From IMG/VR virus record IMGVR_UViG_3300029341_000010: a DNA stretch of 41,441 nt; one strand, 5' to 3'. This document shows positions 17,683 through 39,392 of the stretch, one piece after another. Origin of the DNA: a virus. How positions within the stretch are numbered: the stretch's first letter is position 1; every line of letters starts with the position of its first letter. Under the pieces are notes generated by a model. That model saw only the letters and a program-made list of their open reading frames with translations. It was not told the origin of the DNA and searched no databases. The position numbers and the translations under genes are program-made.

Positions 17683-18927
17683 TTGACAGGAATTTTTAAA
17701 GGACGATTTCGGGTGCGGTACAACTACGCCCGATTTGGTTACACGCGGGGTGGCGGTAAGACGTGGCACGGCGGCATTGATTTGGAAGCGCTGGACGATG
17801 ATACCATTTACATGCCAACCTACAAGGGCAAGAGCATTTCCGGCACGGTGACCCGGGCGCGGATTGTGACCGACAAAAACAATGCGACGTGGGAGTGGGG
17901 ATATTACGTCTGTGTCCAGCTGGACGCAAACCAGACGCCGGATGCCGTCAACTACCTGTATTTCTGCCACTGCGCCAAGCTGTTGGTCAAGGCTGGGCAG
18001 AAAGTCAAAAGCGGCGATGCACTGGCCGTTATGGGCAACACCGGCAATGCCGCGTTGGCAGACCCGCCGTACAAACACTGTCACTTCGAGGTGCGTGCCA
18101 CTGCCACCGGCAAGGGGCTTGACCCGACGGCGTATGCGGGCTGCCCGAATGAAGTGGGAACCTACGGCGACCAGCCTGCGCAGACAAGCGGTGAGGAAGT
18201 GCTGATTGATGTATCCCACCACCAGGGCACTATCGATTGGGCGAGTGTTCCCTACCGCGCCATTGTTCGCATCGGGTATCGCGGCTACGGCAGCGGAAAG
18301 CTGATGAAGGACGAGCAGTACGATGCCAACCTTGCAGGGACGAAAGCGAACGCAAAGTTGTTCGGCTTTTACTTCTTCTCACAGGCGGTCACGGTGGATG
18401 AAGCCCGGGAGGAGGCAGACTTTTGTGCAAGCCTTGCACCGGCTGGCTACCCGCTGTTTTTTGATAGCGAATGGGGGCATACGACCGATTCCGGCATACA
18501 TGATGGTCGCGCCGACAACCTGACAACAGACCAGCGCACGGCAATCGCAATGGCATTTTGCGAGAAGGCCAAAGCGCACGGATTTACGGCAGGCATTTAC
18601 ACATTCACATCGTTTGCAAGCGGGAACATCGACTACGCTTACCTGTGTGAAGATTACATCGGTTGGCTGGCCGATACCCGCACAAACTACGACAAAACGC
18701 TGCCGCGCTACATCCACCAATACGGGCAGGGCAGCGTCGCAGGCATCACCGGCACGGTCGACCTCAACCATTTTGTTAAGACCCTGCCTGCAGTGAACAA
18801 GCCTGCAAGCAAGCTACAAGTAATTACCATTGGGCCGGTATCGCAGGGAGATGCGGATGCAATCTACTTGCTGTGTAGGGAACGCGGCCTGGCGGATGCC
18901 GGGCTGTATAAGAGTGAGTGGGCATAA
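17683..18927 (+). CDS. Endolysin: M23 peptidase + GH25 muramidase + short C-terminal domain
   Basis: TTG start after GAGGTGA. M23 motifs WHGGIDLEA and HCHFEV are present, as are GH25 motifs IDVSHHQGTIDWASV and FFDSEW, plus about 45 aa of C-terminal tail. Confidence 0.88.
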   Translation: MTGIFKGRFRVRYNYARFGYTRGGGKTWHGGIDLEALDDDTIYMPTYKGKSISGTVTRARIVTDKNNATWEWGYYVCVQLDANQTPDAVNYLYFCHCAKLLVKAGQKVKSGDALAVMGNTGNAALADPPYKHCHFEVRATATGKGLDPTAYAGCPNEVGTYGDQPAQTSGEEVLIDVSHHQGTIDWASVPYRAIVRIGYRGYGSGKLMKDEQYDANLAGTKANAKLFGFYFFSQAVTVDEAREEADFCASLAPAGYPLFFDSEWGHTTDSGIHDGRADNLTTDQRTAIAMAFCEKAKAHGFTAGIYTFTSFASGNIDYAYLCEDYIGWLADTRTNYDKTLPRYIHQYGQGSVAGITGTVDLNHFVKTLPAVNKPASKLQVITIGPVSQGDADAIYLLCRERGLADAGLYKSEWA

Positions 18928-38065: not shown

Positions 38066-38429
38066 ACGGCAGCTGCGCCAGCAGATACAGAGCGAACGTG
38101 AACGGGCAACAGCGACCACGAAAGCATTGTCCCCCGTTGTGGTATCTGCTGGCGGTAAAAATAAAATCGAGGATGCTGTTTGCAGAATCATGGAGCGTCA
38201 AGAAGCTCTATACAAGCAGATTATTGACACTGAGATGCAAAGGGAAGAAATCGAAACAGCAATAAACTCTGTTCAAGACCAAATGCAGCGGGACGTTCTG
38301 CGGGAGCGGTATATTGTCGGAACCCCGTATTGGTGGAAAATTGCGATAAATCTAAATATTTCCGAGCGATGGGCAAAGAAATTACACCGCGCTGCAATTG
38401 AAAATCTGTGCACTCCAGTTCACTTTTAA
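37998..38429 (+). CDS. Sigma-70 region-4-like late transcription activator (ArpU/RinA-position)
   Basis: ATG after GAAAGGAG. The C-terminus is RDVLRERYIVGTPYWWKIAINLNISERWAKKLHRAAIENL. It is the last early gene before the packaging module. Confidence 0.7.
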   Translation: MTREEFNQKKTWLWRYQRSRNYERQLRQQIQSERERATATTKALSPVVVSAGGKNKIEDAVCRIMERQEALYKQIIDTEMQREEIETAINSVQDQMQRDVLRERYIVGTPYWWKIAINLNISERWAKKLHRAAIENLCTPVHF

Positions 38430-38780
38430 CCTGCTATTATAGATATGCTGGATGATGTAGGAACGGGACAGCCTACTGCATTGCTAAAACCTCTTTTCTT
38501 TATTGTTCCAATTCTCCTATTCTCATAGCTGGCAGCCGGGAAAGACCGGCATTTTATATGCTACATAGCCGATTCTATTTGTAAAGAATAAGGGCACCGC
38601 GTTCCGAAGCAACGGCGCGGCAAAGGTGCAAGACCTGTGTGTAGTACCAACGCCGATGACTCTGGCTATATACCCGGCAGGTACGCTTGACCGGGGTTAC
38701 CCGTCAGGTACGCTTGCCGGGGTAGCCAGATAGGCAACCCCCGCAAGCCTACTGACAGTGCGTAACATGCGGGGCCTTGT

Positions 38781-38854
38781 GCGGGCGTAGTTCAATGCAG
38801 AACGGCGGTCTCCAAAACCGCAAGATGAGGGGTCAAGACCTTCCACCCGTGCCA
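38781..38854 (+). tRNA. tRNA-Trp (anticodon CCA), CCA end encoded
   Basis: A manual cloverleaf fold. The acceptor stem is GCGGGCG/CACCCGT (1 mismatch, 1 G-U pair) and the D-stem is GTTC/GAAC. The anticodon stem GCGGT/ACCGC carries the loop CTCCAAA, and the T-arm is GAGGG-GTCAAGA-CCTTC. The total is 74 nt. The D-loop and T54 are atypical. Confidence 0.6.
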
Positions 38855-38942
38855 GACGGCAGGGTCGCAACCTGTCTGTGTGAGAGTGTGCGGTATACCT
38901 CACAAATGATGACAATGGTCGTGCAAACGGCAAGCCGCACAT

Positions 38943-39000
38943 GCCCTTGTAGCTCAATGGCAAGAGCCTTGGTGTGCCGGTTCAAGTCCGGCTGAGGGCA
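38943..39000 (+). ncRNA. tRNA-like element lacking the anticodon arm (58 nt)
   Basis: The acceptor stem is GCCCTTG/TGAGGGC, the D-arm is GCTC-AATGGCAA-GAGC, and the T-arm GCCGG-TTCAAGT-CCGGC is canonical. Only 8 nt (CTTGGTGT) sit where the anticodon stem-loop plus variable loop should be. Confidence 0.5.
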
Positions 39001-39360
39001 CGTGCTGGGTCGCTCCCACCGGTGAAAGCCCGGCGCAGGCAAAACGCGATAGATAACCTGAACGCTGTAAGCAAAGCGGCAAGCCGATCAGGAGCGCGGC
39101 GCGATGGCAGGTCGCAACGGGACTTCGAGAGCCTGAAAAAATCTGCCCCACATCTGCTTGCGCGGACGCTGTTACTGACACCGTTGCGCGTTGTGGCCCT
39201 CCTTTTAATCAAAGCAGAAACCGCGACCAGCGGACGGGATATAAATAACGCTGGATTACGTTGCAGGTGTGCAGCTGCAACGGGCGAGACCGGCATAGCA
39301 GAGACCGGTAGGGCGGGAACGCGCTTTTCCTCCGGCGCAAAGGGGTTTTGGGGGATATAA

Positions 39361-39392
39361 GCCTACACAAATTGTGTTGGCTTTTTGTTTTG
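39361..39392 (+). terminator. Rho-independent terminator at the end of the non-coding tract
   Basis: GCCTACACA-AAT-TGTGTTGGC (9 bp, one mismatch) followed by TTTTTGTTTTG. Confidence 0.65.

Follow-up and report, generated by a model that had tools for sequence, protein, structure and literature searches.

A conserved tRNA-like element without an anticodon arm upstream of a D12-methyl RNA in human-gut phages: a candidate mark for transcript processing

Architecture of the element

The window, that is, the whole 41,441-nt stretch of viral DNA analysed (IMG/VR record IMGVR_UViG_3300029341_000010), contains at 38943..39000 on the plus strand a 58-nt tRNA-like element, hereafter type A, in which the anticodon arm and the 3' CCA are absent. 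It keeps the upper half and the core of a tRNA, with the acceptor stem, both the D and the T arm and the elbow, and its decoding ability is gone. From comparative sequence data, and with about even confidence, we propose that type A may serve as a punctuation mark for tRNA-processing enzymes in a long non-coding late-leader transcript, freeing the RNAs that flank it. The evidence in hand comprises its architecture, its conservation, a position fixed by a conserved RNA, the interchangeability of the elements found there and the loss of CCA.

The acceptor stem (GCCCTTG/TGAGGGC, 38943-38949 and 38993-38999) has seven pairs, two of them G-U, and is followed by U8 and A9 (38950-38951), a D arm with GG in its loop (GCTC-AATGGCAA-GAGC, 38952-38967), an 8-nt linker between the D and T stems (CTTGGTGT, 38968-38975) and a canonical T arm (GCCGG-TTCAAGT-CCGGC, 38976-38992), all on the plus strand. 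The discriminator A (39000) is followed by CGT, and CCA is therefore not encoded. Every structural detail given in the initial annotation, made from this sequence alone, is present. The elbow nucleotides U8, A14, G18, G19, U54, U55, C56 and A58 are legible, the G53-C61 pair can be read from the sequence, and the T-arm stretch GGTTCAAGTCC at 38979-38989 fits the t-element motif GGTTCRANYCC.

The Rfam tRNA model RF00005 matched exactly 38943-39000 on the plus strand with 40.9 bits, against a gathering score of 29 (E = 2e-5, whole window searched). In this alignment, 18 model positions corresponding to the anticodon arm were replaced by four inserted bases, and the rest was aligned. Our own model R1 scored the element at 69.9 bits. 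Thermodynamic folding of the 58-mer alone recovered the acceptor and T arms and mispaired the D region (z = -1.85); the D arm is supported by the tRNA model and by covariation, not by the minimum-free-energy fold. Type A is thus like a canonical tRNA in its three arms, its tertiary elbow nucleotides and its score above the gathering threshold, and unlike one in having the 8-nt linker for an anticodon stem-loop, no encoded CCA and no ARAGORN call at 38943-39000, and in being unable to decode.

Conservation of type A

The truncated architecture, which the initial annotation had proposed to look for in related phages, recurs about 120 times, almost invariant, in related uncultured human-gut phage contigs. 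Nucleotide diversity, compared over loci that were not chosen by the presence of type A itself, was 0.012 within the element versus 0.16 in the next 7 nt and 0.26 upstream, the upstream value being a mean over an 88-nt spacer that is inflated by non-homologous alignments. This low diversity relative to the flanks points to purifying selection on type A. The linker, too, has a diversity of just 0.02, and the element is nearly invariant even in loci in which the RNA downstream has strongly diverged (L182 and L193). The few changes include compensatory ones in the D stem (GCTA/TAGC in L078) and T stem (GCTGG/CCAGT in L008), and the variant CAAGGGC of the acceptor 3' strand was also counted as such. 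The leader ACAT precedes 98 of 123 copies, and U occupies position -1 (ACAT or ATAT directly before the first G) in nearly all of them. In a search with the type A pattern, all 74 viral contigs matched carried the conserved RNA block described below downstream of the element.

Flanking RNA elements

Upstream, the tract begins with a GC-rich hairpin (GCCGG-GAAAGA-CCGGC followed by ATTTTATAT, 38535..38559, plus strand) that was called as terminator-like and also forms the AU-rich leader immediately before the first tRNA-like module; the same hairpin with the motif TTTTATAT precedes most tRNA-like elements in relatives. The module that follows, termed X, is a 90-nt cloverleaf-shaped RNA (38560..38649, plus strand). 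Its acceptor-like stem is accompanied by three hairpins, one variable, one conserved (GUUCCGAAGCAACGG) and one short and T-like, and it encodes an ACCA end. Its closing stem covaries in relatives (GCTACAT/GTGTAGT, GCTGCAT/ATGTGCAGT and CCGTAT/ATACGG) and its ACCA is conserved. Neither ARAGORN nor Rfam gave a call for X, which by its predicted fold is a second, more aberrant tRNA look-alike. The commonest chain of elements is X, then type A, then the conserved block (49 loci).

Between X and type A lie a structured spacer module ending in the hairpin CCCCGCA...TGCGGGG (38650..38780, plus strand), a full-length phage tRNA-Trp with anticodon CCA and an encoded 3' CCA (38781..38854, plus strand; called by ARAGORN and, with 50 bits, by the Rfam tRNA model), and an 88-nt structured spacer (38855..38942, plus strand) that ends in ...GCACAT and so places U at -1. 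The first spacer module, 76% identical to the nearest record (G001), is missing from many relatives, and in some, such as L010, its terminal hairpin with TTTTATAT directly abuts the tRNA-like element. The 88-nt spacer is variable and is present 5' of type A in most type A loci.

Downstream of the discriminator, a variable 6-nt junction (CGTGCT, 39001..39006, plus strand) leads to a conserved structured RNA block that starts with GGGTCGCTCCCACCGGTGAAAGCCCGGCGCAGG and has a variable middle (39007..39258, plus strand; 84% identity to G001). The block appears from its sequence to be the body of an RNA that ends in the D12-methyl motif RF02950 (39259..39321, plus strand; 73.2 bits against a gathering score of 57). 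The second hairpin of this motif covaries in relatives (ACCGG/CCGGT, GTCTG/CAGAC, GTCGG/CCGAC and CCCGG/CCGGG). An intrinsic-terminator-like hairpin read from the sequence, AGCCTACACA-AAT-TGTGTTGGCT with a T run (39360..39391, plus strand), is 95% conserved in G001 and stands directly before the genes for a ParB-methyltransferase, terS and terL.

The D12-methyl motif (Weinberg et al. 2017, PMC5737381) thus lies 258 nt downstream of type A on the same strand and, as in the family description, is followed by a terminator and, further downstream, by a DNA methyltransferase. RF02950 is a 64-nt two-hairpin model that covers 39259-39321 and not type A, which is a neighbour of the motif rather than a member; here, the motif forms the 3' part of a unit of about 390 nt with a tRNA-like head.

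The block was also considered as a group II intron. Its score, 25.7 bits here and 17.5 in G001, fell short of the gathering score of 49, and a domain V match, a reverse transcriptase and a conserved GUGYG at the junction were all absent, so this candidate was rejected. Rfam gave no match in the window to GOLLD, ROOL, T-box, RNase P RNA or Y RNA, and a DNA search with the 971-nt tract matched neither the GenBank phage collection nor E. coli genomes.

Interchangeable elements at the junction

The block was located by exact words in 77 contigs of IMG/VR and 107 gut contigs of ENA, and its copies in relatives were aligned and folded with RNAalifold. A tRNA or tRNA-like element stood at the junction in 114 of 121 IMG/VR block loci, ending 5-9 nt (in a few loci 21-26 nt) before GGGTCGC. 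In the independent ENA gut set, known types were found there in 90 of 102 usable contigs, and several of the others had other full tRNAs. Thus, in two independently collected contig sets, more than 90% of block-bearing contigs have a tRNA or a look-alike at the junction. In the window, type A ends 6 nt before the block; in relatives, this spacing reaches 26 nt, inserts of 24 nt are tolerated and the junction bases vary (ACATGCT, AAAGGCT, GAAAGCT and TATTGTT).

At least five unrelated anticodon-defective types occupy the junction, always with the acceptor and T arms, in most cases with the D arm and never with an encoded CCA. In place of the anticodon arm, type A has its 8-nt linker, type B a 29-nt aberrant middle, type C a 4-bp stem with C33, type D a stem with a tetraloop, and types E and F a mini-hairpin. 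In a minority of loci, the junction holds a full tRNA-Trp, tRNA-Thr or tRNA-Ser, an X-like cloverleaf or a plain hairpin; in L026, L062 and L081, the tRNA-Trp of the window itself sits directly there. The initial annotation had held that a full-length tRNA at this position in relatives would indicate a recent deletion. Such tRNAs do occur in this minority of relatives, but they are of unrelated isotypes and do not represent an undeleted form of type A. The idea that degenerate tRNA-like elements occur at the junction alone was dropped as not strictly true, types C and D being also found one position upstream of it (L008 and L073).

Across the different tRNA-like types at the junction, 97.3% of the stem cells of the acceptor, D and T stems are paired, versus 75.5% in shuffles, and both sides change in 12 of 16 stem pairs, while degeneration is confined to the anticodon region. 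These figures, together with the roughly 120 recurrences, bear out the earlier remark that the element is too well formed to be random. The 3' ends also differ between classes: CCA is encoded in 81 of 91 distinct canonical tRNAs of these loci, among them the full tRNAs (Trp, Thr and Ser) at the junction, but is absent from all 181 copies of types A, B, D, E and F.

A possible role in transcript processing

Under the processing reading, the tract of about 830 nt from 38560 to 39391 would be transcribed as a single RNA from the same strand as the late genes. Host RNase P would cut 5' of G38943, freeing the upstream RNA, and host RNase Z would cut just after A39000, because the discriminator is not followed by CCA. 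The second cut would give an RNA of about 390 nt (about 39001-39391) with a defined 5' end, comprising the block, the D12-methyl motif and the terminator, and the CCA-adding enzyme may add CCA to the freed 58-nt piece.

The features recognised by tRNA-processing enzymes are intact in type A. In Bacillus subtilis, precursors that lack CCA are cleaved by RNase Z immediately 3' of the discriminator, and CCA inhibits the enzyme. RNase P prefers U at -1, and the U found at this position in type A copies agrees with that preference. The suggestion of a processing signal, one of four roles raised in the initial annotation, is thus favoured by the comparative data (fixed position, interchangeability and CCA loss), whereas the deletion pseudogene, the anticodon-nuclease decoy and the Y-RNA mimic, discussed below, fared worse.

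Several observations do not sit well with a processing mark. The conservation of type A, which extends to the linker and D loop, is stricter than a generic cutting signal requires; the spacing to the block is loose, up to 26 nt; and the full tRNAs at the junction, which bear CCA, would not serve as RNase Z substrates. Moreover, types C and D are not confined to the junction, and there are type A homologues away from the block. Together with a wider class of anticodon-less elements, these homologues hint at a function of the small RNA itself.

Alternative functions

It is possible, though unlikely in our estimate, that the functional product is the released 58-nt RNA, a mimic of the top half of a tRNA that binds or titrates a reader of the acceptor end or elbow. 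Candidate targets would be a defence toxin directed at tRNA acceptors, the CCA-adding enzyme and T-loop modification enzymes. The mimic would form after processing and CCA addition, and the adjacency of the D12-methyl RNA would reflect co-transcription alone. This reading would account for the near-invariance of the linker and D loop in loci where the block has diverged. It also gains from homologues away from the block, some of them with encoded ACCA: close homologues without the block lie upstream of an HNH gene (L204, L224 and L231), and others, with ACCA, lie upstream of scaffold and capsid genes (L226, L228 and L230). Comparable anticodon-less elements occur in unrelated high-GC and other phages; they are 57-60 nt long and have a similar linker with a central GG that agrees with G45 and G46 in a tRNA core, and many of them encode the CCA as ACCA. 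Since such elements, in part with CCA, are found in further phage groups, type A could conceivably have its own function. However, unrelated tRNA-like types and ordinary tRNAs freely replace the element at the junction, which argues against a specific trans-acting RNA, since such an RNA should not be replaceable. In addition, CCA is never encoded in the junction family and no partner protein was found within the window. The version in which the mimic is a decoy for anticodon nucleases, also raised at first, is implausible because the anticodon loop is absent.

Somewhat less probable is that type A stays uncut on its 3' side as the 5' domain of the D12-methyl RNA, where it could be a structured cap against 5'-to-3' exonucleases such as RNase J or a docking module, either inside the folded RNA or for a protein. 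The tight adjacency to the block in more than 90% of loci would fit, as would the pairing by RNAalifold of the first block bases with the D12 region. There is also a precedent in the phage and prophage RNAs GOLLD and ROOL, which neighbour or lie inside tRNA arrays and sometimes contain a tRNA (PMC5737381, PMC12990946), although the RNA found here has no sequence or structure match to them, is much smaller and modular, and has a tRNA partner that typically lacks the anticodon arm. Against a 5' domain, a tRNA-shaped 3' end without CCA is a standard RNase Z substrate, a spacing of 6 to 26 nt with 24-nt inserts is tolerated, and the exchange of unrelated element types is hard to square with a specific tertiary contact. 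The pseudoknot that RNAalifold suggested between UGCUG, in the first bases of the RNA, and CAGCA, in the loop of D12 hairpin 2, was rejected as unsupported: the core of the loop does not vary, the changes in the junction are uncompensated and show no covariation with this loop, and hairpin 2 covaries locally.

Broader, and more doubtful again, is the idea that top-half tRNAs without an anticodon arm form a widespread, undescribed class of phage small RNAs that would be cut by RNase P and RNase Z, receive or encode CCA and act in trans as acceptor or elbow mimics, with the punctuation of D12-methyl RNAs as a secondary use. Members of such a class might sequester host defence toxins or enzymes working on the 3' ends of tRNAs.

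We consider it improbable that type A is a non-functional remnant, that is, a tRNA pseudogene or recombination scar in an insertion hot spot for tRNAs, carried along by linkage. The region is indeed such a hot spot, with arrays of up to 12 tRNAs in relatives (L035), and in some loci 5' pieces of tRNAs separate type A from the block. Type A probably descends from a phage tRNA; the nearest full tRNAs among relatives, tRNA-Thr(UGU), are identical to it at 38 of 50 compared positions, a weak resemblance that is compatible with an origin by deletion. Decay is difficult to reconcile with a diversity of 0.012 between flanks at 0.16-0.26, with compensatory substitutions in all three of its stems (D, T and acceptor), or with at least five independent lineages that have lost the anticodon region and nothing else. 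Nor was a full-length version found: a search for homologues with the same D and T arms separated by 16-30 nt gave no match in 2.9 million IMG/VR viral contigs. Type A is also kept by many phages in which ARAGORN called no canonical tRNA over the upstream stretch covered (up to 2.5 kb). The deletion pseudogene entertained in the initial annotation is accordingly disfavoured.

Finally, a tRNA-like domain of a bacterial Y-RNA-like RNA of the YrlA type, which would tether the Ro60 protein, is hardly credible, as the window has no match to a Y RNA family even at E values up to 5 and no TROVE/Ro60 domain was found among the window ORFs scanned. In YrlA, the two ends of the RNA pair into the Ro-binding helix and a loop closes the acceptor-like stem, whereas in type A the acceptor stem is formed by the free 5' and 3' ends. 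The one point in favour is a general resemblance to the tRNA-mimicking module of YrlA RNAs (PMC4201824).

Comparison with known systems

Several eukaryotic systems offer parallels for the processing mark. In mascRNA/MALAT1, MEN-beta and the tRNA-like-pre-miRNA units of murine gammaherpesvirus 68, non-decoding tRNA-shaped modules within long non-coding transcripts recruit RNase P and/or RNase Z, which defines the end of the neighbouring RNA. The herpesvirus tRNA-like element lies 5' of its product, as type A does. In contrast to type A, which has no anticodon arm, these eukaryotic modules keep a reduced anticodon stem, and the herpesvirus elements double as RNA polymerase III promoters, a role with no bacterial counterpart.

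The t-elements of plant mitochondria (Hanic-Joyce 1990; Forner et al. 2007, PMC1920247) are likewise non-canonical, non-decoding tRNA-like structures that adjoin other RNAs and have a conserved GGTTCRANYCC arm. RNase P and RNase Z cut at t-elements and thereby generate mRNA ends; the excised pieces bear C or CCA that is not encoded (PMC1920247). These elements are organellar and flank mRNAs, and their cleavage was shown experimentally; type A is a non-homologous phage element with presumed cleavage, stands before a structured non-coding RNA and still has its whole D arm and elbow.

In the collection of papers searched, none described such phage elements or had 'D12-methyl' in its text. If the cutting mark is real, tRNA punctuation as in mitochondria, plant t-elements and MALAT1/mascRNA would extend to the non-coding transcripts of bacteriophages, and phages would keep degraded tRNAs for their shape alone. 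The orphan D12-methyl motif would be redefined as the 3' end of an RNA of about 390 nt with a predictable 5' end, which would make synthesis and testing much easier. Given that the family was found in well over 200 human-gut phage contigs, with similar elements in other phage groups, any function it has would be common in the gut virome. A reduced tRNA-like element with TCCA is also present in a cultured phage, Flavonifractor phage Chenonceau of F. plautii, at about 18329-18378 of ON453904.1. For annotation, such elements are missed or miscalled by tRNA finders (ARAGORN calls type B 'tRNA-His(atg)'), and gene callers overlay spurious small ORFs on them.

Pedobacter was considered and rejected as a host. 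Its one 20-mer match was about what chance predicts in the 596 Gb of species-representative genomes searched, and was treated as such; model R1 detected no tRNA-like element at the locus. The only lead to the host is the portal protein, which is 68% identical to that of Flavonifractor phage Chenonceau.

An anticodon-less tRNA mimic

The 58-nt element at 38943–39000 (+), termed type A here, is a real, selected and non-decoding tRNA mimic, and all the features that the initial annotation had ascribed to it are present. The Rfam tRNA model matches exactly these positions with 40.9 bits, against a gathering score of 29, and leaves only the anticodon arm unaligned, 4 inserted bases standing for 18 model positions. 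ARAGORN did not call the element, the sole tRNA that it reported here being the neighbouring tRNA-Trp (38781–38854). The canonical elbow and core nucleotides are in place (U8, A14, G18, G19, U54, U55, C56, A58 and the G53–C61 pair), a GG in the linker CTTGGTGT would be the counterpart of G45 and G46, and the discriminator A39000 is not followed by CCA. RNase P, RNase Z and the CCA-adding enzyme recognize the acceptor-T helix and the elbow; the element retains what these enzymes recognize and has lost the parts needed for decoding.

Across 41 type A loci, none chosen by the element itself, nucleotide diversity was 0.012 in the element and 0.02 in its linker, compared with 0.16 in the 7-nt junction 3' of it and 0.26 in the upstream spacer, the last value being inflated by non-homologous alignments. 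Compensatory changes were found in the D stem of one locus (L078, GCTC/GAGC to GCTA/TAGC) and in the T stem of another (L008, GCCGG/CCGGC to GCTGG/CCAGT), where the acceptor 3' strand has become CAAGGGC. A pattern search of 2.9 million viral contigs for the same D and T arms with a 16–30-nt middle gave no matches, and type A is present in many phages with no ARAGORN-called tRNA in the upstream sequence examined (up to 2.5 kb).

Genomic context and layout of the tract

The window represents a temperate siphovirus genome that is close to complete, with the large terminase gene divided between its two ends and genes for portal, capsid, tail, endolysin, integrase, DnaB and RusA. By portal protein, the closest cultured relative is Flavonifractor phage Chenonceau (68% identity), which makes a gut clostridial bacterium the probable host. 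No credible ORF was found in the ~950 nt that separate a transcriptional regulator gene (DUF1492; PHROG 'transcriptional regulator/activator'), ending at 38429, from a ParB-domain DNA methyltransferase gene that begins at about 39385 and is followed by terS and terL.

Since a second tRNA look-alike (X), tRNA-Trp, the element, a conserved structured RNA (the block) and a D12-methyl motif were found in series, this tract is a chain of a hairpin/U-tract, X, a spacer module, tRNA-Trp, an 88-nt spacer, the element, and the block with its D12-methyl motif and terminator. The more aberrant X, a 90-nt cloverleaf-shaped RNA at 38560–38649 (+), was missed by tRNA finders and by Rfam. It is preceded by a hairpin and ATTTTATAT and encodes ACCA. 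Its acceptor-like stem shows covariation across relatives, and it also has a conserved GUUCCGAAGCAACGG hairpin and a short T-like hairpin. X, spacer, type A and block form the commonest chain among relatives (49 loci); tRNA-Trp and the module 5' of it are present as insertions in some lineages only. In two loci (L063 and L076), the block is directly adjoined by an X-like variant that lacks CCA.

At 38535–38559, immediately 5' of the tRNA-like X, lies a GC-rich hairpin with TTTTATAT after it; this arrangement, with TTTTATAT or a close variant, also directly precedes tRNA-like elements in seven other loci. This hairpin resembles an intrinsic terminator and also supplies an AU-rich leader with U at −1, the base preferred there by RNase P. 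The tract has two or three terminator-like hairpins 5' of the late genes, which, speculatively, would be compatible with an antitermination-dependent late leader.

The block, delimited by comparison with the nearest related record (G001) and with contigs retrieved by exact words, is strongly conserved. It starts with GGGTCGCTCCCACCGG at 39007, 6 nt past the element, and extends to the D12-methyl motif (RF02950, 39259–39321, 73.2 bits with Rfam), 3' of which a terminator-like hairpin and T run occupy 39360–39391. RNAalifold paired the first bases of the block with the D12 region; this pairing was not adopted, given that hairpin 2 of the motif covaries locally and the junction (the few nucleotides between element and block) lacks compensating changes. 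The 9-mer GCAACGGGN occurs twice, at 39113–39121 within the block (GTCGCAACGGGAC) and at 39278–39286 within the D12-methyl motif (CTGCAACGGGCG), and again 3' of the type A homologue of L226 (CGCAACGGGGAG). Two IMG/VR contigs (L023 and L035) carry up to 11 canonical tRNAs in an array 5' of the block. Both have a tRNA-Lys ~210 nt inside or after it and lack the D12-methyl motif, so that the 3' half of the block appears replaceable.

Occupants of the junction in relatives

A tRNA or tRNA-like element occupies the junction in 114 of the 121 block-bearing IMG/VR loci, ending 5–9 nt (in a few, 21–26 nt) 5' of GGGTCGC. Human-gut assemblies from ENA, scanned independently, yielded 102 usable contigs, with type A at the junction in 39 and five other anticodon-defective types, B to F, in 9, 9, 11, 5 and 8, respectively. 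The junction held tRNA-Trp in six contigs, tRNA-Thr in three and other occupants in 12, among them a complete tRNA-Ser, a further element of tRNA length, tRNA-Trp or tRNA-Gly with an additional ~50 nt, and a simple hairpin. All 74 viral contigs matching the type A pattern have the block downstream.

Types A to F are unrelated in sequence. Type A (58 nt) has an 8-nt linker, type B (84 nt) an aberrant 29-nt middle, type C (69 nt) a 4-bp stem and C33, type D (74 nt) a tetraloop-closed stem, and types E and F (65 nt) a mini-hairpin of 3–5 bp. In a comparison of 24 distinct sequences drawn from these types, pairing in the acceptor, D and T stems reached 97.3%, versus 75.5% in shuffles, and 12 of 16 stem pairs show both-sided change. 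Degeneration is confined to the anticodon region and is repeated across types. In seven loci, ARAGORN called type B 'tRNA-His(atg)', yet its middle forms no anticodon arm, an example of how such elements reach annotations as odd tRNAs. Eight loci carry a 19–24-nt insert between type A and the block that resembles the 5' part of another tRNA (e.g. the D-arm-like AGCATTGCTCATCTGGTAGAAAT), which suggests recombination between tRNA-like modules at the junction.

Possible functions

Of the roles proposed initially, a processing signal for the surrounding RNA is favoured by the retained arms, the loss of CCA and the exchange of elements. The most likely reading, to which we give an even chance, is a t-element-like processing mark for the ~390-nt D12-methyl RNA. 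Unrelated tRNA-shaped elements replace one another at a fixed site beside a near-invariant RNA, as a generic, shape-based signal would predict. CCA is encoded in 81 of the 91 distinct canonical tRNAs of these loci. Types A, B, D, E and F never encode it (181 copies), and ACCA has been retained in type C, which is near-complete. Nearly all copies have U at position −1. In Bacillus subtilis, a precursor without CCA is cut by RNase Z directly 3' of its discriminator, and CCA inhibits the enzyme. Through CCA loss, the elements would become clean endonucleolytic cut sites, RNase Z being expected to cut after the discriminator, a few bases 5' of the block. mascRNA/MALAT1 and the tRNA-like–pre-miRNA units of murine gammaherpesvirus 68 share the mode of action of t-elements. 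Plant-mitochondrial t-elements offer the closest precedent, the likeness being that of tRNA-shaped processing marks (PMC1920247); for the phage element, we infer cleavage and all other enzymatic steps.

Confidence in a processing mark is held at this level by the excess conservation of type A, its block-free homologues, a wider class of similar elements and the occurrence of types C and D also one position off the junction. The conservation of type A exceeds what a generic signal would require, and the element is unchanged in two loci with a strongly diverged block (L182 and L193). A generic pattern scan for anticodon-less tRNA-like elements found close homologues without the block 5' of an HNH endonuclease gene (L204, L224 and L231) and, with ACCA encoded, 5' of scaffold and capsid genes (L226, L228 and L230). 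Comparable 57–60-nt elements were found in unrelated phages, including high-GC ones, and those of nine loci from other phage groups score 43–48 bits with the Rfam tRNA model. They sit between protein genes, 8–60 nt 5' of the next start codon, many with ACCA encoded just 5' of the ribosome-binding site; in the high-GC group, a long hairpin ending in CACCA lies on the 5' side. These elements could be the same punctuation inside mRNA operons, but they equally allow a function of the small RNA itself, which is a live alternative for type A.

A decaying deletion pseudogene, also among the initial proposals, is made unlikely by the low diversity relative to the flanks, the compensatory stem changes and the lack of a full-length form with the same arms in the contigs searched. 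Full tRNAs do occupy the slot in ~10% of relatives; being of other isotypes and not the undeleted element, they speak only weakly for the recent deletion that such occupants had been expected to indicate.

Related elements in the literature and in a cultured phage

In the literature searched, anticodon-arm-less tRNA look-alikes were not described for phages, and D12-methyl was not mentioned in any text; a catalogue of structured RNAs in viruses published in 2023 refers to 'tRNA or tRNA-like' candidates in general terms only (PMC10690425). Three segments of locus L162 (4003–4052, 4100–4145 and 4316–4385) correspond to Flavonifractor phage Chenonceau (ON453904.1, about 18329–18711). This phage carries a tRNA-like element reduced to 47 nt, with an acceptor stem, the 5' half of a D arm and a T arm; TCCA follows, and further 3' lie an ACCA-terminated minihelix and an int-alpA RNA (RF02996, 49.6 bits). 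Annotation here is limited to tiny hypothetical ORFs, and Chenonceau, being cultured, offers a possible experimental system.
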